Both the position numbers and the translations under genes were made by a program. Under the pieces are notes generated by a model. That model saw only the letters and a list, made by a program, of their open reading frames with translations. It made no database searches and was not told the origin of the DNA. Below are positions 19,614 through 51,586 of a stretch of DNA of 58,309 nt, piece after piece. The stretch lies in NCBI GenBank assembly GCA_013203355.1, contig JABMQH010000075.1:1-58309 (forward strand), given 5' to 3'. The stretch comes from Candidatus Omnitrophota bacterium (GTDB lineage: Bacteria > Omnitrophota > Gorgyraeia > JABMQH01). The first letter of the stretch is position 1. Each line of letters starts with the position of its first letter.

Positions 19614-22600
19614 TTATATATTTTCTGCAGTTTGTTCTGGTCCCTTCCCTAAGTCGTCTAGTCCTGCCGCACCAGCTGCAGGCTGCTTAGGCTTTCCATT
19701 TGGCACCCATTGATATTCTACCTTGCCCGCACCTTCGGGTGAGAGGCGAAGCCATCGACCTTTTGTAAACTCATCATTTGCCATCTCCCAACGGCCTTCA
19801 CTCAGGTGTGTTGTAAATCTTGCGATACCTCTTTCTAGCTGCTCTTGCGTATAGCCGGGGTTCTGATCAGGATCAGCTAACATTGCTTGACATATTTCAA
19901 GCGCTTCTTTTATCTTGGCCACCATAAGTTTATCTACCAGATGCCTTTGGTCTTCAGGCATCGCTGCCTTTGTCTTACTAATTAAATGTCTGAAAATTAC
20001 TCCAGGCATATCTAGAACTCCGCCTATTTCATCATTCTCTAAGCCGGGGCCGTTCTTAAAAGTAAACGCAAGAACGTTTTCGTCTTTTCTTATTCCATTT
20101 TTTACATACGCGCAGAAACCTACCCTGGCTCCAGCCGCTATATCCGTATCCGAAGCTATAAAGGCACTTTCTATTACAACCCTTTCTTTCGCTCCTGTTA
20201 TGCCTATAGTTGAACCACCTCCTATATTGGCAACATTGGCAACATATACAGTCTCCCCATCTATTTCCGCTTTAATCTCAGGGAAATCCGTATTACGAAT
20301 TGCTGTAGCCATATGGTGGTCTGCTAGACCTGTTGCGCCATTTGTTAACTCGGTCCCAACGGTTGAATCAATAAATGGGCTTCCTATAGTACCGGCACTT
20401 CTACCTCCTACAACTACAGCGCGTGGTTCAAACTTTGTTCCATCGGCTGCAGTGTTTCTTTCTATCAAATTATGAGAAGACGTTACATCATCTCCAAGCT
20501 GAGAATTACGTATACGTGAATTTGAGTGCTTATTGTTTTCGCCTATTGTTACATTTTCTCCTACACAATTCTCAATCTCTGAATTTGCTCCCACTGTAAC
20601 ATTGTCGAGATGGGAACCCCATACGGTTACTCCTGGTCCAATTACTGTGTTGCCTGTGAGCCTGGTCCCTGGAAGAAGTCTCGCAGTTGGATGCACCTCC
20701 ACCGCTGCATCGACATACGTTATTTGTGTTCTTGATCTCAGGGCTTGTGTTTTTACTATATCCGTCCGAATAGGTTCTCTTGCAACACCTTGACGCCTAA
20801 CATCCAATATCTGTGGCATCATTGTCTGTGCGTACTGGTGATGATTTGCGATAAGTCCATCCGCGATCAATTTGGTTAATAGCGGCTTACATCTGTCACT
20901 TGTATACATCGCAGTCGCAGCATCGTAATTCCACTCTGAAATAAACTTACCATTGCGAAATTCCCACGCTCTACTGTCCAAATGTGTTTTATATAAAGCT
21001 AATGCCTGCTGTAGTGTATCCCTTCTCGCTTCGAGTTTCGCCTTTGCTTCGGAACCGTCGCCCTCTGCAGCAATCAATGGCTCAAGCGCAGATAAGGCCT
21101 TTGTGCAAATAACCATACCTGTCCTAAGCATCTTCTCTGGAAAATCATCCAACACCTTAAGTACCTCATCTGGATCCGTATCATCCAGTTTTGCTTTCGC
21201 GTGAACTTTGGTGACCATATTTTCCATCATTCTTATAATCGCATGCGGACTATACGTAAAGGTCCATCCGGGAGTGGTATCTCTCGGACTAAGCCCATGT
21301 CTGGCCTCACCCGGTAGTATCTGGCCCCAGACCTCCCTTCCCTGATGTGCGGCTACACTAAATGGATTAATAACGGTTAGGTTCGGCTCCATGGCATGTT
21401 CCCAAGTTGTCAAATCCAGTTGTCTAGATAAAGCTATAATTCTTGTGTCCGGGGCAATTATACAGGATGGTTTAACAAAAACCGTACCGTGGTCGCTTAT
21501 GTCTCCTACTCCTGTAATGCGAGTGACGTAGTCACCCTGCGCAACCGCCTTCTCACCCTGATAATCTGAGAAGATAGCATACTCGCCCACAGGACTTACA
21601 TTAGGCAAACCCTCTATAAATTCTGGAACTACATTATCACCTTGTAAATCCAGTGCTAAAACCTTGTTTGTGAATACTCCTGTAACAAAAGCCATTCTCT
21701 TGATCTCTAATCCCCAGCCAAGCCAGGACTCAGCCACCTCTGTGGGGCCTATTATATTCACTAAATCCTCTGCATGAACCAATTCCACCTTGGCTCTTAC
21801 AATATTACATTGTCTGCCTATTTCGCTATGAGATACGTCGCTTTCTTCCACTACTGACCCCTTACCAACTCTGGTATTAATAAGATTGGACTGTCCTGTT
21901 ACTTTAGCTTCTGTTTCTATAACAGTCCTATCGTTAGCAACGCGGTACTCGCTATCCGCGTACCCCCATTTCTTTTTCTTTTCCACCGTCTTTAAAGTGG
22001 AATCCGAAATTATTGCCCTCTTCTCTACGTCAACATCATCCAACTTGCTGCGTTTGATTTGTGCACCCTGCTCAACTATGGAATTGGCGACAACGCTATT
22101 CTCGGAAATCCTTACATCTGAACCTATAACTGTCTTCATGCCTGTTACTATGCTTCCGCTTCCTATAAAAGCAGTCTCATCTATATTTCTAAGATCGACA
22201 TCCTTGGCTATCATTCCTCCTTGCTGTGTTTCATAGTAGTGGCCGTTATCGGTAAGGTTCAATTTAGCCATTCGTTCTGCTCTTTCCGCAGGAGGCATTG
22301 CTACTGCTGCTTCTACCACAGGAGTTCCTGCGGTAAGCCGCGCAAAGGAAAATTCAGAAGACGTTGATCTATTAAGTTCATTCGCAAAGATCGTCGCTAA
22401 TGTCATCTGGCTGAAATTTGTCAGTTCGTTGGGTGAATCGGGTATCGTCAGAATAAGTGCTCCTCGATTTTCAAGGAAGTCCACTGCCGGTTTTGCCTCT
22501 GCCCCATCCTGTACATCCGATTCCTTTACCACCACTATCAGGCTGGCGGCCCTCGTATCGTTTCTGTTTGCATCAACAACAGCTGCGGTCAGCGTCCTGG

Positions 22601-25600
22601 AATCGGTACCTAATACAACAACCAAGGCATCTTGGTATTTCGAAGCCGGGGCCTCTGTCGGATGAGGAGTAAACTCTGAATTCCTACCCGCTTTATTAAT
22701 CTGATCCAAAAATTTCTTTACCGTGTTCCACACCGCTGCCAGAGGTCCATGCACAGATTCATCTACAGGAAGGGCTTCTGCTTCAACACCGGCTATACGA
22801 TGCAACATAGACCCCCAGACCAACGCACTTGCATAATCCTGGCCGCCACCAATGATCTGAACCGTCCTATGCTGCATATCAAATTTATTCCTCCTCAAGT
22901 CAACGAGGCGCTGTCGCAAACGTCCAATCTGAGCTTCATTGGTAACAACTTGCCGTGACAACTCTCTAGCAGAGGTTAGGCCTACTTCGTAATCCTTCAT
23001 ATTTAGCGAGCCTTTTTGCCAACCCAGATAAACCCCAAAGCTCATCAACGACATATAGTACATTCCTGTAGTAGATGTTGCGTCCAAGTCATTGGGCAGG
23101 ACAATTGAGCCAAAACTGTTATTTCCATATGCCAGGACGCCTGGCGAGCGCCCATCAGTAATAGCAAATATGGGTGTCCCTTCAGGGACGTTTTCCTCTA
23201 ACACCTGCAGAATAAGCTCTTCGCCAATCGCATCCCCGGGCACTGCTTGTTGATCTGCATTACGGCCTTCAACCGGATCTTCGATATCAGGGATCTCTGC
23301 ATTTCTGCCCCAGGGTCTATTGTTCGACCGCCGCAGGACGACAACCACGGTATTTTCATCAATATCTGATGCAAGATCATAATCGCGTGGATTGTGGACT
23401 ATTACATTTACCCCTGCCAGTGTAGGTTTAACTGCTTCAAACACAAGTCCTTGTGTTTTATTCGCCGTAATCTTATACTCCCTGCCGTCGAAAAATGCTT
23501 TCAGCTGCTGTTGAAATTCCCTAGAAAACTGTCCTTCGTCAACCGTTGCAAATTCTATTAGCTGATCCTCACCCTTAACTTTTTTAACACCATCTTCCCC
23601 AATACCATTAATTTCTATTGGGCCACCTATTGGCTGGCCATGTTTAGTTTTTTGAATATAAAAATTGCGCGTACGAAAATTAAACGTAACGGTATAATAT
23701 TCTCCATTGACGGCAACATTTCCTACTGTCTGAGTCTCCATCGGTGTTCCGGTAGCCGGATCCTTAGGCCGATCAAAGAGACCTGCTCCTGTTATTCGAA
23801 AATCTGCGTGTCCCAAGGGGCCTGCAGCCATAATAGCTGCTGTATTACCATCGACCACTTCTTCAGTGATCACAACTACTTTTTTTATGTTCTCTGGACC
23901 AAATTGCTTAATGGCACTATCGTTGAATGTGCTGTAGCCAGCCATGCCGCCGACAGTGTTAGGAAGACACCTTCGTGTAACATTATCATATACTAATGGA
24001 AGTCTGGCTATGGCCTTATCGATTGATTTTGCCAATGTGGCCCAGTAAGCAGCAATCGCCTGCTGGTGCTGCACAACAAGCTCTTCAATAGCAACACCTT
24101 GAAGTTCGCTCATATATTGAAACATTTCATAGAGAACGCCGGGGACTTTAATACCTTTTACCGTGACAGATTTGGCGAGATTACGTGAACTATCAATTTC
24201 TGTATCCGATAAACCTGCTTGCCTAGCAAACGCTACCGCAGACTTAAAAAAGAACGTTGCATCGACAACAGCCTGGAGGGCGGGATGAACTCTATCAACC
24301 CCAAAAATCTGGACGCGGTCGCGACCATCGCCGCCTTCTGCTACAGGATCTATACCCGCTTCTTGCTTTAAAGTTTGTAGTTGTTCCCAAAATTCATTTT
24401 TCTCATCGCCTTCAAAATCATCCTCGTTAAAAGTTTGCACGATAAAATCAAGGCCAAGCTCTTTGCATCTTCTTATAAGCGCTAGTGCCTCATCAAACCG
24501 TGTAGGGTCGGTAACTTGAATAACGATCGGCCATCTCAGTTTATTTTTAGCAATAAACTCTAGAAGATTCCATGCAGTATCCTCGCCATAATCATAAGCC
24601 TTACCGAGAATCCAGCGTGTCTCCTCCCATTTTAATTCACCTTCCTCTATAATAGGATTATTGTGCTTACTGCCGAATACCAGAGCACCGCTCCCATTCC
24701 GATAGCGTTTGCCTTCGGCCATAATCCAACTATTCGGGTCCTCTGGATCTAATTGCGGATCTCTTACTTGTGCTGTTAGTATTTCCGGCATTTGCTGTTG
24801 TTGTTGCACAATTGTCATGCGCTCTGCCTGCACCTGCTGTCTTTGTTCTTCTTGGAGCGCGCCATCGCGCATTTGGCTAAGCTGAACACCGAGGATACCA
24901 AGATCAAATAGGATGCCCAAGAATCCTTTCGTGGTAAAGACGGCTCTCTCTTCTCCGGTCTTTACGTGAATTGTACCTGCCGAGTCAGCGGTGAGCGTTC
25001 CAATATCCGACTTAGGTTTTCCAGTAAGAGAAGCGGTGCATACCCCGTGACTGTCCTTAGCCTGCGTCAAGGCATCGAGCGTCAATGCCGTGGAACCGGA
25101 CCAGCTAATACCGACAACAAAATCGTGTTTTTCATCATAATGCTGGTTAGTAGAGACGAGATGACCCGGACCTACGGGAATAATTTCAACGCCGGGTAAA
25201 AGGGTTTTGAAAAGTCGCTGAACACATTTTGCATCTCTTTCAGAGCTTCCGATACCAGTAATAAACATTCGTTCAAGCCCCTCAAGATTCTCACCAAATC
25301 GTGCCTTTAACTCATCAATATCAATACCATATCGCTTGAAAACTCCCTTAACCTTTTCCATTGACATATCAACGGTCCCATCGGGCTGAATATAATTGGC
25401 CACACTCCTTAAAACAATCCATGGGATTTCATTGATGTGTTTCTCGGCATAGGTCCTAAATTTACCCTTATCAGCTATATCAATAGGGATTAAATCTTCC
25501 TCATCTTTTATTTCATCTGTTGTGGTTGGATCGATAGGGGTACCCAAGAACTTAGTATACTCAAGATTAACTTCCCAGTCATCAGTTGCTTCATTGAGCC

Positions 25601-28600
25601 TTTTTGATATTGAAACGACCTTTTGTTTGCCTTTAAGGGTTACCACGCGGGCGCTATATTTGTTTCTAATCACGTCCTTCTTGGTTTCCACTTCTTTGTC
25701 GATTTCTCGAACCCTTATGTTAAAAGCCTCGATTGCCTGGGCTACTTGCGGCTCATAGGAAGCTCCTAATTCCGCTTGCTTTCCAGCGAGCACTTCAAGT
25801 GCTGCATCCCTCGCTGCTCTAGCTTCGTCCACCGCCGCCATACCGTCTTCATCTATCTGATTAAGATCTCTTACATCGGCATCTATTTGTTGAGTGTCCC
25901 ATAACCGCAAGGCAGAACTGGGATCAGAGGTAACCTGGTATTTAGCGTCGACTACTTTCCCCTTTACAACTTCAGTTCTAATGACTACATAAAGAGGCCT
26001 TTCATGGCTTACGATAATGTGTTTATCAGGCATGTGGAGAGAGCGCACATCTGCAGCTATTTCAGATATTTCAGATTCCGGACCAAACACCGTAAGGGCC
26101 ACGCGCAAGGCTATTTCGTCAGGCGACATGAATCTAGTTTTTTTCGATGTCTTGACAATTTCGTTCCACAATGCTGCTAATGTCATCTCCTCCCCTGTCG
26201 CTATTTGTACGTTCCCTTCCAAGAAATTATGCGGGGAGTCTGTATCTGTATACTCTTGGGTTTCGTCACTCCTTCTGGATTCTTCACCACTTATAGCCAT
26301 AGAATCTAGGGCCGCTGCATCGCGAACATACTCCCAGAATACAATAAGCGCTTTGGTGTCGGTAAGAATCCTTTCTCCGTCTTCTGTCATAAAGTCATAA
26401 CCGCGCGCTTCAAGAAACTCTACCATGGCAGCAACGATATTCGGATTTAAGTCACCATTGTGGGCCATGATGCGTGTCGCTCTGCCTCTTTCCTCGGCCG
26501 GCAGAGCCTTGGCTCTTTTTAAACATTCCTGTAAACGTTCTCGCGAGCTCAAAGGTTGTCCACCATCTCCGTTGTGTGTAGGTAAATCTTTAACTATTGA
26601 AGCGATAGCGCTGGCCCTAAGCCCTGACACTCTACCAGTGTCCGTATGCGGTTGCCCATCTTTCTTCTCGTTACTTCCAGTGGTGGCCCATCGATCGTGT
26701 CCTCCTATGTAATCTATATTACTCATGTACCCCAAAGTAATGCTATCAAGGGTGCCGAGTTCGATCCCGTATTTCCTAATAACCGCAATTTTTGCATTAC
26801 CTGGATTTGCCGGAACAACAGATTCCCTCTGGAACCATATCGTCAGCGCCTCAGAAGCCCTGCCAACCATATTAAGCCGTGCCTCTTCGCGCCAGTCAGT
26901 AAACCAATCTTTTGTTCTCCAATCTTTTACGCCCTTGGTTCTCAACAGGGTTCGGTAGTTTTTCTCTACTTCTCCTCGATCTTCTGTCCGCACGGTAAAA
27001 GTGCCTATTAACGATGACTGCAACCTGAAGAGGTGCCGAACAGGATCCAGACTAAATATAGCAGGAACCCTGACAAAACGACCATTGAGAAACTGCTTTA
27101 TGGCATCCCAGCGGACTTGATCGCCTGCGGGAACCTCTTCTCCCCTGATTACCCTATCAATCACCCGCTCGTAGGTCATAACAAGCTCTGCTATCTTTGC
27201 TTCGATGTGTTCTGGATGTTGTCCCATCGCTTGCTCAGCAGCAGTAATTGCTTCTTCTAATTCAAATTTAATAAAATATTTAATATACTCGATATCCAGT
27301 TGATGTTTGTCTTTAAGTCTCCTTACCAAAGCGGGGATATTATTGCGGATTTTATATTCTCTACCACCAAAAAAATCAACTGCTAATCCGACGGGAGAAA
27401 ATCCCATTTGTCCAACCCCAATTGCTTTATTCTTTACGACATGGCCAGCGGCATCAAGCTCTCGAGTATACATCTCAGGTGCGCTGAAATCTGAATGTGC
27501 AGTAACGGCTATGTTTTGGTGGGTTCGCAATGTTTGACGTGCAGCAGTGACCCGCCTATTTATTTCCTGGCGCTCTTTCCGGTTCAGATTTCTCCATTTT
27601 TCATGAAGTGCTGCCAGGTCTTGATCTGTAAGCGGTTTGTGGTCATACAATTTAAGTAATGCTATTTCTAATTGAGGATCTTCACAGTCCGATACAACAG
27701 CTTCACGATTTTCATATAAATAATGCATAGCTCTTTCTTCAAGTCCCTGGCCTCTCATATATATAGCCCTGGCCATTTCTTCAGAGCCACCCATCACCTT
27801 ATTTACCCGGGTGCCAAACTCATCGTTGGTACTAATACCTACATCATCCGATCCCCTATACTCCATCTGCCTCATTGATCCCAGATGCTTACCAAATCCT
27901 GCTCCGATAGTTGTAATAATGCCGCAGGCACCTCTTATCCGTTTCAAATCGGCCCCTTCTAAAAGCCGAAATCCTGCATCACGAGCTTGCATAACCGGCT
28001 GAAGGAGCTTAAGTTCATCACCTAACTCACCATTAACCAGAATATTTCCTGTCCATCTTTGTATAAAATCCCCTATTGGTTCTGTTTGCTGAATCCCATT
28101 ATCTCTATAAGTTATTTCACTTTCACTTATGCTTTCAACTTCGACATAGTGATTTCCTTCTGGATCAGAAGCATTCCTTTTTACATGAGCTATAAATCTC
28201 TGCTGCCCGGTAGCTAGGTGTCTTAAAAGCTCAAAGCCGTTAGCAGTGGGTGCCATTCCGACACCTATTAACTCGCCTAATTCAGCTAATGCAAAGGCCG
28301 TATGATATAACCTGCCCTCTGCATCAATGTGGGCAACTTTGCCTTCCGACTCTGACATATCTATAGCTGTCAAAAACAATGCTGATATATCATTAGAGAC
28401 ATGCGAAGGCGAGGAGTATCGGCCTGTAAAAAGCGGGCTGGCATGTTGGGGATTATGAAGTGCATCGTGTAGGGCTTGTGGGCCGCAGGCCTCTGCAAGC
28501 CGCCTGTTAAGCCTATCCCATTCTTTTCTTGCAGTAGCCTGGAGTGCGGTATTTCCTGGATTGAGTGCTGCTACAATTTCTAAAAGCCAGTTATCAGGGC

Positions 28601-30941: not shown

Positions 30942-30969
30942 AGTATAGCATATACAAGGCAAATGTCAA
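30942..30969 (-). promoter_or_regulatory. sigma70-type promoter of the 3749-aa gene
   Basis: On the minus strand: TTGACA (30969-30964), a 16-nt spacer, then TATACT (30947-30942). A 5' UTR of about 75 nt follows, with a small AGGGAgtTCCCT hairpin and AAGGAGG. Confidence 0.55.
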
Positions 30970-31106: not shown

Positions 31107-31136
31107 TTGACAGAGGGGTATGGCTTCTTGTAGAAT
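31107..31136 (+). promoter_or_regulatory. sigma70-type promoter of the MtnX-like gene; very short leader
   Basis: TTGACA (31107-31112), an 18-nt spacer, TAGAAT (31131-31136), then ATG 12 nt downstream with no Shine-Dalgarno sequence. Confidence 0.5.
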
Positions 31137-31148
31137 AAAGCGCTTAAT

Positions 31149-31814
31149 ATGAGAAAGATAATCGTGATCTCGGATTTTGACGGAACAATCACAGCAAAGG
31201 ATTCGCTTGTTGAGATATTAAACAAATTCGCAAGCCCGGAGTGGCATAAGATCGCAAGGCTTATAAATAAAGGCCGCCTTGGTACCCGAATCGGCCTGCG
31301 AAAAGAATTCAATTTATGCAAAGTCACCAGAAAGGAATTCGTAAATTTTCTTATCAAAAACATAAAGATCGATACAACCTTTAAAAACTTTTTACAATTC
31401 TGCAGAAAAAATAAATTCAGATTCCTGGTTGTAAGCGGCGGCTTCGGGCTTAATATTAAAACCATCTTTAAAAAATTCGGGATCAAGAACATACCTTTTT
31501 ACGCCAATGCAATAAAGTTCAATGAGGACGTAGCCGAGTTAAAATTCCCTCCCGAAGCTAAGACCTGCAAAACATGCAGCCATTGCAAGGCGCCTTATAT
31601 AGGACAATTTAAAAAGAAGGGTTATTTCACTATTTATATCGGGGATAGTGTAACGGACCGCTGCCCTGCAAGGGTCGCTGACTTAGTATTCGCCAAGCAT
31701 CAGCTGGCTGAATATTGCAAGGCCAAAGGCATTAAGTATATTCCTTATAATACCTTTGGCCAGATAAAGAAATATCTTACTTCTTGCTCTTTACAGCCTC
31801 GGAAGCGACACTAA
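31149..31814 (+). CDS. HAD-IB phosphatase of the MtnX (2-hydroxy-3-keto-5-methylthiopentenyl-1-phosphate phosphatase) family
   Basis: IVISDFDGTITAKDSLVEILNKFASPEWHKI closely resembles the B. subtilis MtnX N-terminus. The Cys cluster CKTCSHCKAPY and IGDSVTDRCPA..DLVFAK also match. No other methionine-salvage genes are nearby. The 3' end overlaps the convergent DUF4954 gene by 38 nt. Confidence 0.65.
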   Translation: MRKIIVISDFDGTITAKDSLVEILNKFASPEWHKIARLINKGRLGTRIGLRKEFNLCKVTRKEFVNFLIKNIKIDTTFKNFLQFCRKNKFRFLVVSGGFGLNIKTIFKKFGIKNIPFYANAIKFNEDVAELKFPPEAKTCKTCSHCKAPYIGQFKKKGYFTIYIGDSVTDRCPARVADLVFAKHQLAEYCKAKGIKYIPYNTFGQIKKYLTSCSLQPRKRH

Positions 31815-33690
31815 TAGTCTCAAGAAGCTTTTCCACTTCTTTTTTAAGCTGCGCGGTTTCCTGGTGAGTTTGCTTTACAAAGCTATCCTCGGCAGCTGGT
31901 GCATGTGCCTCCGGATAGTCGTCTATAATACGAGCCCCTCTTATATCATCCTTCTCTTTTGAAACCTGCACATCTCTGGCGATCTTCTCCTGCATCGAAA
32001 CTAAGAGCTTCAGGTTTTCTTCAATGCTGTTGCTGGACAGCTCTTGGTTCAAAATCGCCCTCTCGTGTTCCCATCTGGGATCCTGGGTCTTTTTGGTCAA
32101 GGTGTCTTTTGCTTTTTTGTTGGCCTCAAGCTGTTTTTTTAACCCCATAAGAGCATAATACCTTATATAAAAAGTATAGGCCTCAATACCTGCCTTGCGG
32201 GATCTTTCCAGCATATAGCTCTTACCTATCCCCTTTATATCTTTATCCGTATAGAGCTCTTTTTTCTGCTTAACGTCTTCCAGCCTCTTTCTTGCATCAA
32301 TCATAAGATCTACTATCTCGGGCCTGAAGACCTCAAATTCAATCTTTGCCCGTTTTGCCTTATTTCTCTTTTTGTATTTACCTTCATTTCTCCTGACTGT
32401 AAATATGTTATCGCTCAATACCCATCCCGGCATGATCTCATTATATGCGGGGGATATCTTCTCAATGGTTGCAGCGGATGAATTAATAAGAGAAAACGGG
32501 AATGTAACCTTTTGTGGAAGCGCATTCACGGCAGTTGCAATAATCGAATAGGGTGCCTTTGTGAAATCTGATGGAAATTTTATATTTACGCCTAAGCCAA
32601 AGAAGGTGCCTTCTCCCGCCCATAATTCCTGGTCGGGTGCTTTTGAGGTATGGTTTGAACCAACGTTTGCTCCATAGCCAACGTTACCTTTACCTTCCGG
32701 CCAGAATGCCGCGATCAAAAGGGCCTGATGATGAAAGCCTACAAATGGGCCAACCAAACAAGCAGTAACCTCTCCCTCGGCAATACCGGTGTTTGCTCCT
32801 ATGATGGAATCCGTGACCTTCCCATGACGCTCAACATGAGAATGCTCTACCAAAACAGAGTTGGCGACTATTGCCATCGAGGTAACCTCGCAACCCCATT
32901 GGATAAGCGAACCTTTTACATAAGCGCCATCGGAAATCTCGGTTTCCTCTGCCTCGCTACTTAAGATCATTGAATTAAGAATCGTCTCAGCGCTATCTAT
33001 TGCGGCATGCTTTCCTATATAAGTATTCGAGATTTTCTTTATATTCTTTACCTTTGCGCCTTCTTCGATAATTCCTTTATCCTGCTTAATTTGTTCAATG
33101 TATTTGTCTACGGAGTTGCTGTATTCCTCCAGGAATTTCTTATCAGCTCTGGAGGCCGCTACCTTGGAGGCTACTTCTATGGTTATTTCAGCATAGGTCT
33201 TTACTTCTCTGCCACCTGTCTCAATGGCAATTGGTAATTCCGAACCATTACCGAATGTGTTTTCCTTTTTTGCGGAAATAACACCGCAGTTAAAGACAAC
33301 GGTGTTATCTGCGACAATATAATTAGATAAAGTCTTTACATCTTGTATAAGTACTCCGTCGCCTATATTGGAATCAATTACTATGGAGTTAAATATTCCG
33401 GAGGGGACCTTGGTGCCTTTTGCGATCTCTACGTTTCCGGATAATTTGCCTATAGTCACCTCACCTGAAAAATAATTGCGCCTTATCCTTGATATATCAA
33501 TACCCTTGGCAACCTTTATCTTTTTCCAGTCCTCGGCACAATTGCCGTTCGCCTTTAATTTATCTATCTCTGCCTTGGTAAGCGAGGCGGTTGCCTTCTT
33601 GGCAATTTTCTTTGAGCCTTGTATGCTTTTTATAATTTCGGATTTGGTTATAAGCCCCTTTAATTCACTTAATACTTCTTTGGTGCCCAT
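31777..33690 (-). CDS. DUF4954-family left-handed beta-helix protein
   Basis: 637 aa. It starts with LTKAEIDKLKANGNCAEDWKKIKVAKG..IRRNYFSGEVTIGKL, continues with long imperfect hexapeptide repeats, and ends in a helical C-terminal region. This matches DUF4954 proteins as I remember them and needs HMM confirmation. Confidence 0.55.
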   Translation of the reverse strand: MGTKEVLSELKGLITKSEIIKSIQGSKKIAKKATASLTKAEIDKLKANGNCAEDWKKIKVAKGIDISRIRRNYFSGEVTIGKLSGNVEIAKGTKVPSGIFNSIVIDSNIGDGVLIQDVKTLSNYIVADNTVVFNCGVISAKKENTFGNGSELPIAIETGGREVKTYAEITIEVASKVAASRADKKFLEEYSNSVDKYIEQIKQDKGIIEEGAKVKNIKKISNTYIGKHAAIDSAETILNSMILSSEAEETEISDGAYVKGSLIQWGCEVTSMAIVANSVLVEHSHVERHGKVTDSIIGANTGIAEGEVTACLVGPFVGFHHQALLIAAFWPEGKGNVGYGANVGSNHTSKAPDQELWAGEGTFFGLGVNIKFPSDFTKAPYSIIATAVNALPQKVTFPFSLINSSAATIEKISPAYNEIMPGWVLSDNIFTVRRNEGKYKKRNKAKRAKIEFEVFRPEIVDLMIDARKRLEDVKQKKELYTDKDIKGIGKSYMLERSRKAGIEAYTFYIRYYALMGLKKQLEANKKAKDTLTKKTQDPRWEHERAILNQELSSNSIEENLKLLVSMQEKIARDVQVSKEKDDIRGARIIDDYPEAHAPAAEDSFVKQTHQETAQLKKEVEKLLETISVASEAVKSKK

Positions 33691-33707
33691 ATTTCTCCCT
33701 TCGTCTT

Positions 33708-33762
33708 AAATAGGGACGATCCCTTCTGCCTCTATCTTTAGGTTAGGGAGCCGTCCCTATTT
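33708..33762 (-). other. long intergenic stem-loop between nagB and the DUF4954 gene
   Basis: AAATAGGGACG (33708-33718) pairs with CGTCCCTATTT (33752-33762): an 11 bp perfect stem, with further TCCCT/AGGGA pairing inside the 33-nt loop. It ends 6 nt upstream of the DUF4954 RBS. Confidence 0.4.
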
Positions 33763-33803
33763 ATACATTCAGCAATGACGATGAACAATAAACTCTATGC
33801 TAA

Positions 33804-34574
33804 TTACTTACAGCCGCAGCAGCCAGAAGTCGGTGCTTCGTATTGCTTCTTTAAATTGCTGGCAGCATCTTTATCAACTACAAACGTAGTGTTTTTGTGT
33901 GCCTGTAAGAGCGAAGCAGGTACCTGCTCGGTTGGTGAACCTTCAATTGACTTTGCGATCGCATCCGCCTTTGAGGTCTTATCGGCAATAAGGACTATCT
34001 CCTTTGCCTCTAAGATAGTGCCGTTACCCATCGAAAGGGCCTGTTTCGGCACTTCATTTGCGCTCTTGAAAAATCTTGCGTTATCCTCAATAGTCGTCTT
34101 GGTTAAATCAACAACCCTTGTCCTTGAATCTTTTGCTGAACCGGGTTCATTGAAGGCGATATGGCCGTTTCCACCTATCCCAAGCAATTGAATGTCAATA
34201 CCGCCGGCCTTTTTTATTGCCTCTTCGTAGGCCTTGCACTCAGCAGCCGGGTCTTTTGCTACACCGCTTAATACGTGCGTATTGGCCTTGTTGATGTTGA
34301 TGTGGTCGAAAAGGTTGGTATTCATGAAGTATCTGTAGCTCTGGTCGTGCTCCGAGGTTATCCCTAGGTACTCATCCAGATTGAAAGATCTCACGTTTGA
34401 AAAATCAAGGCCTTCCTCCTTGTGTATACGGATTAGCTCCTTATACATCTTGACAGGCGTCCCACCTGTTGCAAGCCCTAATATGATATTGGGCTTTTTC
34501 TTAATCCTCTCTGCGAAGATTCGAGCAGCTGCTTTGCTCATCTCGTCAGAACTCTTGCAAACAATAACTTTCAT
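33804..34574 (-). CDS. nagB: glucosamine-6-phosphate deaminase
   Basis: ILGLATGGTPVKMY, FNLDEY and GIGGNGHIAFNEPGS signatures, with AAAGGAGA before the ATG. It has an unusual C-terminal tail ..APTSGCCGCK. Confidence 0.85.
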   Translation of the reverse strand: MKVIVCKSSDEMSKAAARIFAERIKKKPNIILGLATGGTPVKMYKELIRIHKEEGLDFSNVRSFNLDEYLGITSEHDQSYRYFMNTNLFDHININKANTHVLSGVAKDPAAECKAYEEAIKKAGGIDIQLLGIGGNGHIAFNEPGSAKDSRTRVVDLTKTTIEDNARFFKSANEVPKQALSMGNGTILEAKEIVLIADKTSKADAIAKSIEGSPTEQVPASLLQAHKNTTFVVDKDAASNLKKQYEAPTSGCCGCK

Positions 34575-34760
34575 TGCGGTTCTCCTTTCCCTGTTAATAA
34601 AGTTTGAGCTTATGAACTTATCATATTAAGAAAAATTTGTCAATAATTTTCTGGGGACGGCATGCGGAGAAACAGGCTATCTGTTTATAACTCCTTATAC
34701 TTAAAGATGTTGCGGTAAGTACTCCTATAATAGGATGTCCCCTTTAGAACTGTCCCACTG

Positions 34761-36860
34761 TTAGTCTTTTTCGCACAAGGCCTTGTAGCTCTTATAATAG
34801 TGTATTGCAAACCCTGCGAAGCTTGGATGTCTCTCAAACTCTCTTTTTGCCTCAACTAAAACCTTATTCAGATCCCTTTGAGTCAAATCTGCAAATGTCA
34901 ACTTCTCAAGCATTACTTCCTTTGCCGCAAACATCAAAAAACTGCTTCCATCCTCACTGCTATATTCCTGATATCGAATGTCTCTGAATTCAGGGTTTTG
35001 TGAAATGGCCTCAATCGCATCAAATGTCAGTTCACTAAGCCCTTCTTCGTCTTCTGGCTTAACGATCCCCCCGAATAAGGCCCTTAATTCAAAGAGTGCC
35101 TTTTTGAAATCTTCTTCAGCGGCCTTTTCCGGCTTCATGAGGCCTATGTATGTTTTTTTGTTGTCCGTATAAGTCTTTAGTGAAAATCCGTTGAAGCGGG
35201 TTCCTCCGACAAACCACGAGGTTTCTTCATCTGACAGATATTTATTGAACTTATCTTCATCTAAGCGCGAAATAAAATAAACTTCCTGATTAGGATATTT
35301 CGATGTCTCAACGCCTACAAAAACTTTTTTTCTGACCTCAGCGGCGTATTTTAACTCATCCAGGGCAAGCCGTATCATCCCGTCGGGACCAGATGCATAA
35401 TTTCTGTAGGCCATTATCCCTACATTATCGCATATATCAATTAACCTCTTATCAAGAAAACCCACCTGGTCAAACCAGAATGGTATGTCTATCCCGAATT
35501 CCAGCTTGGATTCGCTTGAGGAGATCAGTTTCTTGCACTCCTTGTTTAACGCCAAAAACTGATTTACAATCTCTTCTTTTTTACCAGAATGAAAACCGGG
35601 CAACAAATAGGGCTCGTTATCATAATGAATACCGTCTATCTGTTCCGAGGCAGGATATTTTTTATTAAACTCCAATATCGCATTTACCTCTGCCAGAACA
35701 AGGTGATGTTTGTCCTTCAAGCAAAAATCAGCCGCGCCGTCCAGTATGTGCACCTTCAGTCCCTCCGCATGCGCCTCCCTAAGAAAGGACCTTAACTTTG
35801 TTTCATAAAGCAATCTGCAGACTGTCTTGCCCTTATAAGGAATAAATTGATACTGGAGTTGAAAAAACAGAATTTGGATATCCTTCTTTTTGCAGAAATC
35901 AAACAACTCCTTTCTTTTGGCTTCATTCAGAAGGATTTCTTTCGAATGCCAGACCCACATTGCATTCTGCGTATTATTTTTCTCAGCCCTTTTTCTCATC
36001 AGGGTAACCTCTCTTCTTATCGTAAGCGCAGTGGATTTATTGTTAAATATCTTTCGTTTCAATTCTTTAAATTCCCAATACCGCGTATTTTCCCCGTCGA
36101 CCCTTGCGATCAAGTCTCCTTCTCTTAAACCTGACTTGTATGAGGGGCTCCCTTCCTTAATAGTTTTGACTATGGGGCCCTCAAATTCCATGCTTATCGA
36201 GAAAGGTAAAGATAACGCAATTGATGGCAATGGCCCGACATTAACATCTCTTTCTATAACTATTTTCAATATGGTGTTTGAAAGTCCTATTAAGATCCTT
36301 GACGCATTTTTCAGCCCTGCATAGGTAAGGTATTTCGCCCAACAGCTTACAATCACATCCCCTATTAAGAGATCAGTTTCTTTGGGGGCCTCTTTATCCA
36401 GGGCCTTGATAGCGATCTTCTCGCCGACCTTCTTTAAGCTAATCCCCAGCTGGGCCTTCAAGATATCCTTAAGATCTCTATAACGCCAACTCTTATTAAA
36501 ATGCCATCTTGCGTCCTCAAGGCCTTTTATGGCATCCTGGGTTTCTTTAAAATCTGGATTTGATTGAAGCGCCAACCGATAGAATTGAAGCGCCTTTTCA
36601 AAATCGCCTTTGGTTTTAAACTTTTTTCCGATATATAAATTATTCTGATACGGCTCATTAAAAAATATTTCGTCTATTTTTGATTTAAGGATTTCTCCTT
36701 CTCCGTAGTCGGGAATGTTAAATACAAATCGGTCATAATACTCTTCAACGACTAATCCCTTTTCCGTAGTGCCGTCTTTAAAATATATAGTATCAGCAAA
36801 AGCTTTGGGGGATAAAAAATACAGCGCAAAGGATAAGAAGAGGACTAAAGATTTCTTCAT
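34761..36860 (-). CDS. exported multidomain protein: TPR, 2 PDZ-like domains and a GH-A-like TIM barrel
   Basis: Signal peptide ..SPKAFA-DT, a TPR-like segment (GDFEKALQFYRLALQSNP), a PDZ-like segment (SPSYKSGLREGDLIARVDGENT) and a C-terminal barrel. The barrel has MWVWHSKE.., IDGIHYDNEPY (NEP acid/base motif) and VFVGVETSK. Confidence 0.6.
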   Translation of the reverse strand: MKKSLVLFLSFALYFLSPKAFADTIYFKDGTTEKGLVVEEYYDRFVFNIPDYGEGEILKSKIDEIFFNEPYQNNLYIGKKFKTKGDFEKALQFYRLALQSNPDFKETQDAIKGLEDARWHFNKSWRYRDLKDILKAQLGISLKKVGEKIAIKALDKEAPKETDLLIGDVIVSCWAKYLTYAGLKNASRILIGLSNTILKIVIERDVNVGPLPSIALSLPFSISMEFEGPIVKTIKEGSPSYKSGLREGDLIARVDGENTRYWEFKELKRKIFNNKSTALTIRREVTLMRKRAEKNNTQNAMWVWHSKEILLNEAKRKELFDFCKKKDIQILFFQLQYQFIPYKGKTVCRLLYETKLRSFLREAHAEGLKVHILDGAADFCLKDKHHLVLAEVNAILEFNKKYPASEQIDGIHYDNEPYLLPGFHSGKKEEIVNQFLALNKECKKLISSSESKLEFGIDIPFWFDQVGFLDKRLIDICDNVGIMAYRNYASGPDGMIRLALDELKYAAEVRKKVFVGVETSKYPNQEVYFISRLDEDKFNKYLSDEETSWFVGGTRFNGFSLKTYTDNKKTYIGLMKPEKAAEEDFKKALFELRALFGGIVKPEDEEGLSELTFDAIEAISQNPEFRDIRYQEYSSEDGSSFLMFAAKEVMLEKLTFADLTQRDLNKVLVEAKREFERHPSFAGFAIHYYKSYKALCEKD

Positions 36861-37792
36861 TTTTTCTCTACTAGTTTTCTATAACTTAAATAATGGTGCA
36901 TTGCAATACCGGCAAAGGCAGGATTGCTGCCATATGCCTTAACCAACTTGCGTATTTCACTTTCCATCTCTTGCTCGGTCATCTTCGCGAATGTTATATG
37001 CTCCGGATAGAGGTTCTCCTTTGTCTCCTGGCCAATATAAATCTTCTTGTTTACGCTATCTGCGTATTCGATCTCATTTTTCGCGAGGGCAATAGAGCCA
37101 TTAGGGCCGTCTGCAAAGTTTCTATAATCCATAATTGTAACGGAATCGACTGTATCCAGAATATGAAAACTTGGGGATTTTGCCTGCCCATCCCAGATAA
37201 CGACTAAAGAAGGATCGTCATCATACCAGAACGGGATATCACAGGCATATATTATATCCGCTTCCTCTATCTGCCTTAGCTCGATTATTTTCCTATTCAG
37301 GTCAAGGTATTCCTTAAGAAGCTTCCCTTTATTCTGCTCCCACGGTTTGCCCAAAAGGTACACCTCGGTATCATTTTGTATGCCGTCAAATCTTTCCCTC
37401 GGCTTTACGGCCCTGTTAAAGCTCAAAATCGCCTCAAACCACCTCAAAGGCTGTTGATGATACCTTTCCAGGCCCCATCTCGGGTCTCCTCCGAGGGCAT
37501 GGACAGAAATATCATGACTATGTGCAAGGCGATTAAATAGACGGTAATTTTGGATGTTCTGTTCACTAAAATGGTGGGCGGATATGTATAGGCGGTTTAT
37601 ATTCCTGGTCTTGCAAAATTCAAGGAGCCTGCGCGTAGATTCCTTCGACGCGGGGATCTTTACGTCCCAGACCCACATTGCGCGCGGCGGCTCAGCTATA
37701 TCCTGCGCATCTATAAGAAGTGTTGGGGAAAATATAAAAAGAATTATCAAAAACCATTTTGAAATTTTTGTATATTTCGCCCCGTTACGCAT
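36857..37792 (-). CDS. exported GH-A-like TIM-barrel protein (paralog of the C-terminal domain of the 699-aa protein)
   Basis: 311 aa with a signal-like N-terminus. It has RAMWVWDVK.., FDGIQNDTEVY, DIPFWYDDD, TIMDYRNFADGPNGS, IYIGQETKE and FAGIAMHHYLSYRKL. All of these are collinear with the 699-aa and 792-aa proteins. Confidence 0.6.
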   Translation of the reverse strand: MRNGAKYTKISKWFLIILFIFSPTLLIDAQDIAEPPRAMWVWDVKIPASKESTRRLLEFCKTRNINRLYISAHHFSEQNIQNYRLFNRLAHSHDISVHALGGDPRWGLERYHQQPLRWFEAILSFNRAVKPRERFDGIQNDTEVYLLGKPWEQNKGKLLKEYLDLNRKIIELRQIEEADIIYACDIPFWYDDDPSLVVIWDGQAKSPSFHILDTVDSVTIMDYRNFADGPNGSIALAKNEIEYADSVNKKIYIGQETKENLYPEHITFAKMTEQEMESEIRKLVKAYGSNPAFAGIAMHHYLSYRKLVEKK

Positions 37793-37830
37793 TTTGGTCT
37801 CGCTCCATTAAAGACCCCAATTACATCTAA

Positions 37831-37858
37831 ATCCCGTTAGATAAGTTTCTAACGGGAT
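37831..37858 (-). other. perfect 11-bp stem-loop between the 262-aa and 311-aa genes
   Basis: ATCCCGTTAGA-taagtt-TCTAACGGGAT. Only TT follows on the minus strand, so it is a weak terminator at best. It may be an intra-operon processing or stability element. Confidence 0.4.
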
Positions 37859-37906
37859 AAACATAGCAATCATTCTATTATCGCACACAATAATGTGTAA
37901 CGGGGT

Positions 37907-38692
37907 TCATTTCTCAAGCGCTATATCGTCAATAAGCACACCGCCCGAACCAGCGCCTTCAGGATAGCAATCTGCTTCAAAATTTATTGATACCGAAGAC
38001 AGGCTTGCGTAATCCAGAAAAAACACATTAAGCGGTATTTTGGCCTTCTGCCACTCAGTAGTAATCCTGCCTTTTTCCAAATAGACGCCTACCTCTTCTG
38101 ATTTTAAGGAGTCGCCCATCCTATCCCAATGCTCATCGGCTAGGCCAATCATAAAATTTTCACCACCCTCTTCACCTTTTACCCAAAAGGTTATGAGACT
38201 ATAATTTGACGCGTCAAAATACTGGCTGGTCCTTGGATTTTTAAGCAGTGTGTAATAGCCGCACCATCCGCCAAGCCCGCTGGGCCCGCCTGTATTCTTT
38301 TTTTCATACTTAATCATCAGAACCTTTGTTTCCTTGCCGGATATAACTTCATCGCGTTTCGCAAGCATAACCCTCGAAGGCGGCCTTACGTATATATTTG
38401 TTCGTGAACCAAGTTTATTCGTACCGCCCCCCTTTTCAAAATCATCAATGATGACTATGTCGGCATCCGGTGAAGCTGTCGGGTAAGGAGCGCTGGGTTT
38501 TACCGGCGCGCTTGAAGCCTGCGAACCTTGATCTGATGACTCAAACTTATTTATCACAGTAACCTCTTCGCTAATCGCCTGTTTCTTCTCTATGCCCGTG
38601 GTGATAAAATAGAAAATACTAAAGAGACATATTACATTAATTACTACGACCATCCCTACCTTTATTGCCTTCAGTTTATTTTTCTCCCCCAT
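37907..38692 (-). CDS. membrane-anchored protein with one CBM-like jelly-roll module
   Basis: I prefer the start at 38692 (MGEKNK.., GGAGG 8 nt upstream) over the track start at 38728. It has a TM helix and a Ser/Pro linker. The module reads GGWCGYYTLLKNP..ITFWVKGEEGGENFMIGLADEHWDRMGDSLKSEE..TTEWQKAKIPLNVFFLD..VLIDDIALE. Confidence 0.65.
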   Translation of the reverse strand: MGEKNKLKAIKVGMVVVINVICLFSIFYFITTGIEKKQAISEEVTVINKFESSDQGSQASSAPVKPSAPYPTASPDADIVIIDDFEKGGGTNKLGSRTNIYVRPPSRVMLAKRDEVISGKETKVLMIKYEKKNTGGPSGLGGWCGYYTLLKNPRTSQYFDASNYSLITFWVKGEEGGENFMIGLADEHWDRMGDSLKSEEVGVYLEKGRITTEWQKAKIPLNVFFLDYASLSSVSINFEADCYPEGAGSGGVLIDDIALEK

Positions 38693-38708
38693 GGAACCAA
38701 CCTCCGTT

Positions 38709-39317
38709 TCATTCAAACGCCACTTCATCTATATAAACCACGCCTCTTCCCTGCCCCTCAGGGAAACAATCGCCTTCAAAACAAATAGCCACAGAGGCCA
38801 ACTCCTTCATGTCCAGGAAAAATACGTCAAGTGGCACAGTCGCCTTCTGCCATTCTGTCGTAATATGATTCTTCGGCAGATACGCGCTGATCTCTTCTGA
38901 TTTTAAGGAATCGCCCATTTGCTCCCAGTATTTGTCTGCTAATCCAATTTTAAAATTCTCCTGCCCCTTCTCTCCTTTTACCCAGAATATAAGGTTTGTA
39001 AAACCCGTGGCATCAAGATATTTCGGGCCTGACTTTAAGAGAGAGTAATAACCACACCACCCACCCGTGTCATCGGGGCCGCCTACATTTTTCTTATCGT
39101 ATCTTATGACTAATGCCTTCCCCGAAGGCCCGTAATGCTCCCTGTCGCTAGTCGCAGCAGTCGCCCTTGAGGGTGCGCGTTGATACACGCTTGTGCGGCC
39201 GCCTAAAAGATTCCCAACCTTTTCAAAATGGTCAACGTAAAAAGGCTCGGCAAAACAAGGAGTGACATAAAACGAAATACATAAAACGCAAAATAGAAAT
39301 ACACTAACCTTCCTCAT
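38709..39317 (-). CDS. secreted protein consisting of one CBM-like jelly-roll module
   Basis: Signal peptide ..TPCFA-EP, then GGWCGYYSLLKSG..LIFWVKGEKGQENFKIGLADKYWEQMGDSLKSEE..TTEWQKATVPLDVFFLD..VYIDEVAFE. GGAGG precedes the ATG. Confidence 0.65.
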   Translation of the reverse strand: MRKVSVFLFCVLCISFYVTPCFAEPFYVDHFEKVGNLLGGRTSVYQRAPSRATAATSDREHYGPSGKALVIRYDKKNVGGPDDTGGWCGYYSLLKSGPKYLDATGFTNLIFWVKGEKGQENFKIGLADKYWEQMGDSLKSEEISAYLPKNHITTEWQKATVPLDVFFLDMKELASVAICFEGDCFPEGQGRGVVYIDEVAFE

Positions 39318-39320
39318 CGC

Positions 39321-40529
39321 TCAATCCTCCTTCAAATAGAATTTTAAATCATCAATATATACGGTTCCTTTTCCTTTTTCGTTAAAATTTATCACAAATG
39401 AACCCATCTGTGAAAAATCCAGCAGGCCAAAATCCTCAAGCGGTACGACTACCTCCTGCCATTCGGTGGTAATGCCGCCGGGCAGGTACTTTGCCACTCC
39501 GCCTGCCTTTAAGGAATCCCCTATTATGCCCCAATTCTTATCGGCCATGCCTATTTCAAATTTCTCGCCTCCCGTTTTGCCTTTTACCATAAAAGAGGCG
39601 GCCTTAAAGCCTGAAAGGTCGTAGTATTCTCCGTCTATTTGATTCAGCAACGTATAATACCCGGCCCATCCGGTTGATTCCCTTTTATAAACGATTTTTA
39701 AAGAGCGGCCTTTTGAACCAAAATACTCTTCGGATGACCTTCCGGTTTTGCATACCGAAGGAAGCTTCTTATAAGTATTTGTCTTCCTTCCGAGAAGATT
39801 TAAATCGGAATAATCAAAACTATCCAACAGCAAGAAGCCCTTCTTTTTTATCTGCTCCAATCTCCCCTCAAAAACCAAATCTTCTTTATAAAACCTTACT
39901 TCATCAATCCAGAATACGCCATCACTTATGTCATTAAATTGAAAAACCAGGCTATATGTCTTTGATATGTCAGGCCCGTAAAAGTCCGAAAGCGGAAGCT
40001 TAACCAGCTGCCAATTCTTCGTAAGGCCACTCGGCAGATACCTATCTATGGGCCCAATATAAACAGCATCTTCCCTTTTATTGGATATCACATCGTTCAT
40101 TCCGACTTCAAAAACCTCACCGCCTTTTTGTCCTTTAATTAAAAAGGAAATGGTTTTATATCCGGATAAATCAGCCATCAATATCATATAGGCGCCGCAA
40201 AAGCTTTTCTCGTCGGCCTTTTTATACATAACCTTTATTGCCTTATGATCCAGCGTATCTTTTGCCTCCTTAGTGGAATCTGCTATTGACTCGCCTTTAT
40301 AAAATACCTTCTTATCATAAAATACGCCAACCTTAGAAGGCGAGCAGACAAACCCACCAATCTTCCCTCTATATCCAAATCTCTTTTCGCTTTCAAAAAG
40401 CTGGGTTTCTTTTGGCATCGGCGGCAGGTCATTTATGCTAACAGAATCGGCTAAACTTACAGAGAATAAGGAATAGAAAACGGATGATAAGAAACAAAAA
40501 ATCGAAATGATTATAGCTTTTTTATTCAA
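39321..40529 (-). CDS. secreted protein with two tandem CBM-like jelly-roll modules
   Basis: Module 1: ISFLIKGQKGGEVFEVGMND..WQLVKLPLSDF..FWIDEVRFY. Module 2: GWAGYYTLLNQ..SFMVKGKTGGEKFEIGMADKNWGIIGDSLKAG..TTEWQEVVVPLEDF..VYIDDLKFY. Confidence 0.65.
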   Translation of the reverse strand: MNKKAIIISIFCFLSSVFYSLFSVSLADSVSINDLPPMPKETQLFESEKRFGYRGKIGGFVCSPSKVGVFYDKKVFYKGESIADSTKEAKDTLDHKAIKVMYKKADEKSFCGAYMILMADLSGYKTISFLIKGQKGGEVFEVGMNDVISNKREDAVYIGPIDRYLPSGLTKNWQLVKLPLSDFYGPDISKTYSLVFQFNDISDGVFWIDEVRFYKEDLVFEGRLEQIKKKGFLLLDSFDYSDLNLLGRKTNTYKKLPSVCKTGRSSEEYFGSKGRSLKIVYKRESTGWAGYYTLLNQIDGEYYDLSGFKAASFMVKGKTGGEKFEIGMADKNWGIIGDSLKAGGVAKYLPGGITTEWQEVVVPLEDFGLLDFSQMGSFVINFNEKGKGTVYIDDLKFYLKED

Positions 40530-48153: not shown

Positions 48154-48154
48154 T

Positions 48155-51478: not shown

Positions 51479-51536
51479 ATGTCACCTTTTTTAACTTGAT
51501 CCTTCCCTTGAATGCCAGGGACAGGTTCAAACTTGG

Positions 51537-51570
51537 GTTTGGGGACACTTGCGTATTCAAATCCCCAAAC
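51537..51570 (-). other. stem-loop in the spacer between the HD-GYP gene and the 1107-aa gene
   Basis: GTTTGGGGA (51537-51545) pairs with TCCCCAAAC (51562-51570): a 9 bp stem and a 16-nt loop, with no T-tract. Confidence 0.35.
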
Positions 51571-51586
51571 GGTACCAATATTACTA

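Follow-up and report, generated by a model that had tools for sequence, protein, structure and literature searches.

The question raised by this locus is what a protein of the family DUF4954 (Pfam PF16314) does beside NagB, the glucosamine-6-phosphate deaminase. The stretch of DNA analysed, here called the window, comprises 58,309 nucleotides (nt) of contig JABMQH010000075.1 from the assembly of a Candidatus Omnitrophota bacterium (GCA_013203355.1; 1.57 Mb, 206 contigs, 92.7 % complete), and on its minus strand a gene for a DUF4954 protein of 637 amino acids (aa) follows nagB. The comparisons described below show that this protein, though uncharacterised, is a genuine and conserved partner of NagB with an enzyme-like character. 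The reaction that it might catalyse is a matter of prediction, and the reading that we put forward, tentatively and in the knowledge that it may well be wrong, is that DUF4954 could be a GlmU-like N-acetyltransferase that acts on a glucosamine phosphate and works together with NagB.

DUF4954 beside NagB

The NagB encoded in the window is canonical, scoring 311.8 bits against the TIGR00502 equivalog over residues 1-243, where the cut-off is 236.9. The 637-aa protein matches PF16314 over residues 36-473 (model positions 3-432/433) with an E-value of 4.8e-60 and 203.9 bits, the cut-off being 26.2, and a six-frame scan of the whole genome recovered this single DUF4954 (205.1 bits) and no second one. 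DUF4954 is a large and strongly conserved orphan family spanning many phyla, and it is annotated in Treponema pallidum (PMC6953169). Relatives of the 637-aa protein across phyla share 55-95 % identity with it. All of the signature motifs are present in it, namely GPFVGFHHQ, GSNHTSKAPDQE, FPFSLIN, RNEGKY and SKEKDD..RG, and these are invariant or nearly so in the two alignments that were made (A1 and A4). Other DUF4954 subfamilies are 22-29 % identical to the 637-aa protein and have a weaker tie to nagB; the polar residues that are invariant in every subfamily include E157, N300, E307, H320, H321, R434, K438 and R442. When Planctomycetota loci (L099-L106) are compared with the window, at least three subfamilies can be distinguished. 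The first is a Bacteroides type of about 630 aa, which scores 370-430 bits against the Pfam model and has no adjacent nagB in five of these loci (L099-L103), the second is a type of 710-825 aa with nagB adjacent in one of three loci, and the third is the NagB-linked type found in the window.

The association with nagB was examined in 80 loci from GTDB species genomes, drawn from Omnitrophota, Sumerlaeota, Latescibacterota, Planctomycetota, Spirochaetota, Calditrichota, Verrucomicrobiota, Auribacterota and other phyla. In an unbiased clustering of the neighbouring open reading frames (ORFs) at these loci, NagB was by far the commonest neighbour of DUF4954. In a recount by tblastn, 68 loci from about ten phyla had enough upstream sequence, and in 52 of these the gene immediately upstream on the same strand was nagB. 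Often the two genes form an operon of their own, and the spacer between them has a median length of 45 nt. Rarer operon mates, counted among 123 examined, were ROK proteins (7, each just upstream of the nagB-DUF4954 pair), MtnX-like HAD phosphatases (5), acetate kinase (3), PP-binding proteins of the acyl carrier protein (ACP) type (2) and Pta (1). Within Omnitrophota, DUF4954 occurs in 9 of 201 genomes and has canonical nagB next to it in all nine, and canonical nagB is found anywhere in only 10 of the 201. An earlier note on this DNA had argued from gene neighbourhood at this one locus and had proposed a survey of other phyla; with nagB upstream in most loci and adjacent in every DUF4954-positive Omnitrophota genome, that part of its argument holds. 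Three DUF4954-positive genomes, two of them Spirochaetia (G231 and G244) and the third G213, gave no NagB match; in the two Spirochaetia GlmS and NagA were not found either, yet a full GlmU is present.

It is most likely, judging from the arrangement of the sequence, that nagB and the DUF4954 gene of the window form a two-gene unit and are co-transcribed. Co-transcription is plausible because a consensus scan of the minus strand found neither a promoter-like nor a terminator-like site in the spacer, and found a promoter-like site 5' of nagB. The earlier note had described the DUF4954 gene as lying directly downstream of nagB across a structured spacer of 113 nt, and both the coordinates and the folding agree with this, the spacer RNA having a predicted energy of -35.5 kcal/mol and a z-score of -3.6 with none of 200 shuffled sequences equalling it. 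A search of Rfam with the spacer gave no matches, and the hairpin sequence is unique within the window. Four Omnitrophota relatives (L002, L003, L008 and L070) always have a near-perfect long hairpin in the same spacer, of -29 to -44 kcal/mol, and these hairpins are mutually unrelated in sequence though equally strong; outside Omnitrophota the spacer is short or the two genes overlap. The hairpin may be an intercistronic stabiliser or an attenuator that sets the ratio of nagB to DUF4954 expression.

Fusions with a GlmS-like core

The earlier note had also argued from gene fusion, and held that two further copies of DUF4954 are fused to GlmS at the C-terminus of a giant 3749-aa protein encoded in the window (Table 1). 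The fusion as claimed did not survive closer comparison. Two tandem modules do follow the core of the giant protein and make up its last ~880 residues, they are mutually homologous (hhalign 99.1 %, E = 7e-19, 297 columns), and the tail sequences that the note had singled out, THLDSRAWEF and THLSEGRWEM, are present, but the modules are not DUF4954. Among the three regions for which a match to the DUF4954 hidden Markov model had been expected, only the 637-aa protein gives one, and PF16314 has no match at E <= 10 in the modules, whether these are searched singly or joined. BLASTP between the modules and the 637-aa protein reached a best E-value of 0.001, and in hhalign the two align over about 90-95 columns of beta-helix coil only, the DUF4954 core (residues 300-480) matching the modules with a probability of about 1 % and the tail with 0.1-0.2 %. 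A phmmer search with the 928-aa C-terminus against 1.84 billion representatives returned 75 relatives, some of them giant proteins and others two-module proteins of ~800 aa that stand alone, and none of the ten relatives scanned, six of them stand-alone, contains DUF4954. The identification of the modules as DUF4954 is consequently rejected, their likeness being at the level of the coils; on these sequence comparisons they are a separate, rare beta-helix family that says nothing direct about DUF4954.

The core of the giant protein is GlmS-like without being a canonical GlmS, the glutamine-fructose-6-phosphate aminotransferase. It shares the SIS domains of GlmS and of double-SIS isomerases and matches two such isomerases in the PDB (3g68 and 2aml), but it lies within a chain of 3749 aa, TIGR01135 gives only 101.7 bits against a cut-off of 418 and covers the SIS part alone (residues 1795-2094), and Pfam SIS reaches 24.9 where the cut-off is 25. 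No glutaminase (GATase) domain was detected by Pfam in residues 960-1800. At about residues 960-990 (window positions 27900-27990) the sequence RGACGIITTIG is reminiscent of the catalytic Cys-Gly found at the N-terminus of class-II glutaminases, GlmS included, and a similar motif, GCCGV, occurs in the related protein P0199 described below; since the motif lies some 980 residues into the chain, glutaminase activity would need self-cleavage.

A true fusion does exist outside the window. In P0199, a protein of 3358 aa from a related Omnitrophota genome (G099), a full-length DUF4954 comes after a GlmS-like core. Residues 350-2098 of its core align with residues 966-2785 of the giant protein (27 % identity over 1967 aa, E = 2e-150), and its DUF4954 and the 637-aa protein share 41 % identity across 671 aa (E = 4e-168). 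Beyond P0199, only two long proteins among 5.8 billion clusters carry DUF4954, P0201 and P0202, both with weak matches to class-II glutaminases, so that fusions of a GlmS-like core with DUF4954 are limited to three giant proteins of related Omnitrophota. The Rosetta-stone link between the two, as read from these alignments, is real but rare, and does not occur in the window. In other Omnitrophota, domains resembling NagB or NagA are found inside giant ORFs of 5035, 5739 and 9449 aa (G067:C1:16516-17310, G187:C6:63825-64556 and G084:C7:66410-67600), and the giant proteins of this phylum seem to collect amino-sugar enzyme domains repeatedly.

A possible acetyltransferase and its rivals

An AlphaFold2 monomer model of the 637-aa protein, built on a 90-sequence alignment (A4) that included the divergent subfamilies, reached a predicted local distance difference test score (pLDDT) of 94.1 and a predicted template modelling score (pTM) of 0.92; an earlier model from 20 close homologues, with a pLDDT of 61.7 and less than 50 in the conserved core, was discarded. 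The model begins with N-terminal helices and continues with a left-handed beta-helix at residues ~58-330, where short strands recur in beta-helix periodicity and a helical insert is accommodated, a loop-rich conserved core at residues ~331-420 and a helical bundle at residues 423-636. Together with the PF16314 match it bears out the description of this ORF in the earlier note as a DUF4954 left-handed beta-helix protein. Sequence and profile searches of the PDB with the 637-aa protein returned nothing significant. A Foldseek search of the PDB with the model, on the other hand, filled the first 27 places almost entirely with GlmU, with a best E-value of 9e-4 and TM-scores of 0.55-0.58 normalised to the isolated acetyltransferase domain of E. 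coli GlmU (4aa7); LpxD, a putative acetyltransferase, eIF2B and gamma-carbonic anhydrase ranked below it, and OatWY and DapD also appeared. In Pfam, Hexapep_GlmU matches the protein at 28.2 bits, above the cut-off of 23.3. Acetyl transfer had been suggested in the earlier note from the beta-helix, and the fold speaks for it; the activity is so far a prediction. In the model, N300, E307, H320 and H321 lie on successive late coils of the beta-helix and the basic residues R434, K438 and R442 on the helix that follows, an arrangement suggestive of an acyltransferase site with a phosphate-binding arm.

The C-terminal domain of GlmU (glucosamine-1-phosphate N-acetyltransferase, EC 2.3.1.157) is similar to DUF4954 in being a left-handed beta-helix with an amino-sugar context. 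DUF4954 has no nucleotidyltransferase domain, unlike GlmU, and occurs in this genome side by side with a full GlmU. Compared with the C-terminal domain it is roughly three times as large, having an N-terminal extension, the helical insert, the loop-rich core and a helical bundle of 200 aa in addition, and the sequence similarity between them is insignificant. The acyl-ACP acyltransferases LpxA and LpxD likewise have a helical domain C-terminal to a beta-helix, share with DUF4954 a predicted amino-sugar acceptor, and use ACP, which would fit the ACP genes of a few DUF4954 operons. Significant sequence similarity to them and a lipid A context are absent from DUF4954, however, and the domain layout is different.

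If DUF4954 is an N-acetyltransferase, it could be a trimeric GlmU-like enzyme that takes the acetyl group from a thioester, of coenzyme A (CoA) or, in some lineages, of ACP. The likeliest acceptor would be glucosamine 6-phosphate (GlcN-6-P), which NagB may make from fructose 6-phosphate and ammonium. Irreversible acetylation would pull this unfavourable amination forward, and the NagB-DUF4954 pair might in this way provide a GlmS-independent entry into hexosamine synthesis. The path to UDP-N-acetylglucosamine (UDP-GlcNAc), which is indispensable for peptidoglycan and lipid A, could then be completed by the archaeal-type phosphoglucosamine mutase of the window and the uridylyltransferase of GlmU. 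Such an acetyltransferase would account for the pairing with nagB, for the GlmS-like fusions, which would join consecutive steps, for the acetyl-thioester genes of a few operons and for the fold, and the pull on amination would explain why GlmS is frequently absent.

The same reading can be carried further. At least ten phyla, among them Omnitrophota, Planctomycetota, Spirochaetota and probably Bacteroidota, would then use an undescribed entry into hexosamine synthesis that depends on ammonium and not on GlmS, and DUF4954 would be its beta-helix counterpart, in bacteria, to the GNA1 of eukaryotes; in this extended form we consider the reading rather doubtful. GNA1 (glucosamine-6-phosphate N-acetyltransferase, EC 2.3.1.4) would share with DUF4954 both its reaction and its position in the pathway, right after the formation of GlcN-6-P. 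It has the GNAT fold and DUF4954 a beta-helix, and the two would be analogous, not homologous. Were the proposal true, DUF4954 would add one more family to the enzymes known for this reaction, would fill part of the gap in genomes that have no acetyltransferase half of GlmU or no GlmS, and would shift the annotation of nagB from catabolic to anabolic. The family is retained even in a spirochaete genome of 1.1 Mb (G484).

The distribution of DUF4954 was compared with that of GlmS and GlmU in the 201 Omnitrophota genomes, in 50 DUF4954-positive genomes of mixed phyla, in Planctomycetota (22 positive, 129 negative) and in Spirochaetota (51 positive, 50 negative). The resulting counts are indicative and not statistical proof, since the genomes are not independent of each other by descent and taxonomy is missing for two of the samples. 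No canonical GlmS scored over the cut-off in the genome studied here, and among Omnitrophota GlmS was found in none of the nine DUF4954-positive genomes and in 181 of the 192 others. It was found in 28 of the 50 mixed DUF4954-positive genomes and not in the remaining 22; in Spirochaetota it was not found in 10 of 51 positive and 3 of 50 negative genomes. DUF4954 is therefore associated with the loss of GlmS but not bound to it, an enrichment and not a rule, and one that cannot be told apart from what NagB by itself or a scavenging lifestyle would bring about. The possibility that DUF4954 is a strict replacement for GlmS is rejected by the 28 mixed genomes that have both.

Full-length GlmU was found in none of the 22 DUF4954-positive Planctomycetota and in 77 of the 129 negative ones. 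Only 10 of the 50 mixed DUF4954-positive genomes have it, and many of them encode a uridylyltransferase-only protein of ~260 aa. Among the control genomes, DUF4954 was found in a single bacterium, B. thetaiotaomicron, which was also alone among the bacteria in giving no GlmU match at E <= 1e-30. In many Planctomycetota and Spirochaetota, DUF4954-positive and DUF4954-negative alike, the only GlmU is of uridylyltransferase type, ~250-300 aa long and devoid of the acetyltransferase half.

Several observations weigh against the acetyltransferase. The genome itself encodes a full-length bifunctional GlmU (418.8 bits, cut-off 366.85), so that no acetyltransferase is missing here, and the suggestion of the earlier note that DUF4954 supplies an otherwise missing N-acetylation step has to be given up. 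The complementarity seen in Planctomycetota fails in Spirochaetota, where all seven genomes with full GlmU are DUF4954-positive (7 of 51, against 0 of 50) and 50 genomes have neither, and the Planctomycetota pattern may accordingly reflect phylogenetic confounding; the counts as a whole overstate independence, the genomes being related. As a universal stand-in for the acetyltransferase domain of GlmU, for which the Planctomycetota would speak, DUF4954 was rejected on account of the Spirochaetota and of the GlmU of this genome. NagA was found in five of the nine DUF4954-positive Omnitrophota and in 34 of the 50 mixed genomes, and NagA and an N-acetyltransferase in one cell would run a futile cycle unless regulated. 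With a NagC-like regulator and genes for sugar uptake in the vicinity, the setting looks catabolic. Foldseek gave modest E-values (~1e-3) and beta-helices all look alike, and literature searches for DUF4954 or PF16314 yielded two incidental mentions and no functional study.

DUF4954 could instead be an alternative hydrolytic deacetylase for N-acetylglucosamine 6-phosphate (GlcNAc-6-P) or N-acetylglucosamine 1-phosphate, a beta-helix metal enzyme that feeds NagB in genomes without NagA. In this genome NagA was not found over the cut-off (best 28 bits), nor was a PIG-L deacetylase found, yet nagB, the NagC-like ROK protein, an ABC importer, the mutase and a GH94 enzyme that may be a chitobiose phosphorylase have all been kept, and NagA was likewise not found in 4 of the 9 DUF4954-positive Omnitrophota and 16 of the 50 mixed genomes. 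DUF4954 also fills the nagA slot of classical nag operons. The E. coli nag operon (nagB-nagA, with NagC) resembles the present locus in its canonical NagB, in the NagC-like ROK protein nearby and in having a gene for a putative second amino-sugar enzyme after nagB, and differs in that the partner here is DUF4954 and not the amidohydrolase NagA. His, Asp and Glu, moreover, abound in the conserved motifs of DUF4954 (EHSHVERH, GFHHQ, SNHT, PDQE). We nevertheless regard a deacetylase as unlikely. NagA co-occurs with DUF4954 in most of the genomes that have the latter, at times on the same contig, and this is incompatible with a general replacement of NagA, an idea that was rejected and is kept only as a minority explanation for NagA-less genomes. 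Some operons join DUF4954 to NagB-like proteins or to genes of acetyl-thioester supply, and the closest solved folds are transferases. The GH94 enzyme is as close to solved cellobiose phosphorylases (473 bits) as to chitobiose phosphorylases (457 bits), which leaves its substrate undecided between the two, and three CE4 deacetylases encoded elsewhere in the genome could bypass NagA.

A non-catalytic role has a still slimmer chance. DUF4954 would then be a regulator or scaffold that binds a sugar phosphate and acts on NagB or on the fused GlmS-like core, and it would resemble the beta-helix domains of ADP-glucose pyrophosphorylase and of eIF2B epsilon and gamma. Sub-threshold matches of the 637-aa protein to LbH_EIF2B, GMPPB_C, GlgC and eIF2B structures (Pfam, NCBIfam and PDB) are in keeping with this, as are the strict one-to-one pairing with nagB and the long C-terminal helical bundle, which would suit oligomerisation; the fusion with a GlmS-like core would be expected equally of a regulatory domain. 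The invariant His-His, Glu and Arg/Lys residues, retained across subfamilies that are only 22 % identical, are more typical of catalysis, and in the fold search the acetyltransferase domains of GlmU outrank both eIF2B and GlgC.

It is improbable, too, that DUF4954 carries out a different acyl transfer with only an indirect tie to NagB, whether onto a UDP-amino sugar, onto another amine or hydroxyl, or with an acyl group other than acetyl. The LpxD, OatWY, DapD and putative acetyltransferase structures of the fold search would allow for it, as would the five Bacteroides-type Planctomycetota loci without an adjacent nagB and the three genomes with DUF4954 and no NagB match. In the subfamily of the window, however, linkage to nagB is the one constant feature, and the sole known fusions are to GlmS-like enzymes. 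Least credible of all, and very improbable, is an acetyl-conserving transacetylase, by which CoA or ACP would take over the acetyl group from GlcNAc-6-P and ATP would be gained through Pta and AckA: acetate kinase, Pta and ACP genes do occur in a few nagB-DUF4954 operons, but they are rare (3-4 of 75 loci) and absent from the window, and the overall reaction would be strongly uphill by established thermodynamics, the free energy of amide hydrolysis being far below what the formation of a thioester or of ATP needs.

Other features of the window

The features discussed above and the annotated genes around them are listed in Table 1.

Table 1. Position of the annotated features within the window and the matches or remarks that apply to each.
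Feature	Coordinates	Strand	Basis or remark
Archaeal-type phosphoglucosamine mutase	7135-8490	-	TIGR03990 Arch_GlmM, 544.5 bits, cut-off 439
GH94 disaccharide phosphorylase	8487-10910	-	Pfam GH94, 341.7 bits
NagC-like ROK protein, 400 aa	11021..12223	-	Pfam ROK, 153.9 bits; NagC NF047937, 172 bits, below cut-off
Giant protein, 3749 aa	19614..30863	-	own promoter-like site at 30942-30969; GlmS-like core, then two tandem beta-helix modules
C-terminal module 2 of giant protein	19614..20726	-	same rare family as module 1
C-terminal module 1 of giant protein, beta-helix and helical tail	20994..22259	-	not DUF4954; homologous to module 2
GlmS-like core of giant protein, aa 966-2785	22509..27968	-	SIS region at nt 24582-25484
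MtnX-like HAD-IB phosphatase, 221 aa	31149..31814	+	TIGR01489, 117.9 bits, cut-off 81.55; Pfam HAD and Put_Phosphatase
DUF4954 protein, 637 aa, NagB-linked subfamily	31777..33690	-	Pfam PF16314
nagB-DUF4954 spacer, 113 nt	33691..33803	-	long hairpin, core ~33707-33763; GGGAG ribosome-binding site before ATG
nagB, glucosamine-6-phosphate deaminase, 256 aa	33804..34574	-	TIGR00502 and Pfam Glucosamine_iso
Promoter-like site 5' of nagB	34727..34756	-	GGGACA-18-TATTAT, 9/12; consensus scan only, not evidence of function

The gene of the MtnX-like phosphatase is convergent with the DUF4954 gene and overlaps its 3' end by 38 bp. It has a promoter-like site of its own (31107-31136) and separates the nagB-DUF4954 pair from the gene of the giant protein. 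Its protein cluster recurs in 14 of the 80 related loci in addition to the window, and that of the ROK protein in 11. Between positions 7135 and 16922 the GH94 and mutase genes overlap by 4 bp, and the NagC-like ROK protein and an ABC sugar importer are encoded alongside them.

The proteins encoded 5' of nagB (34761-42900) look exported; PDZ/TPR, CBM30 and CBM9 are among their domains, and GH18 is matched weakly. Several Omnitrophota loci, L002, L003 and L045 among them, have the same run of genes in front of nagB-DUF4954. Beyond it, from 42967 to 58308, lie three very large minus-strand ORFs of 1728, 1107 and at least 2051 aa, the last of which runs off the window.

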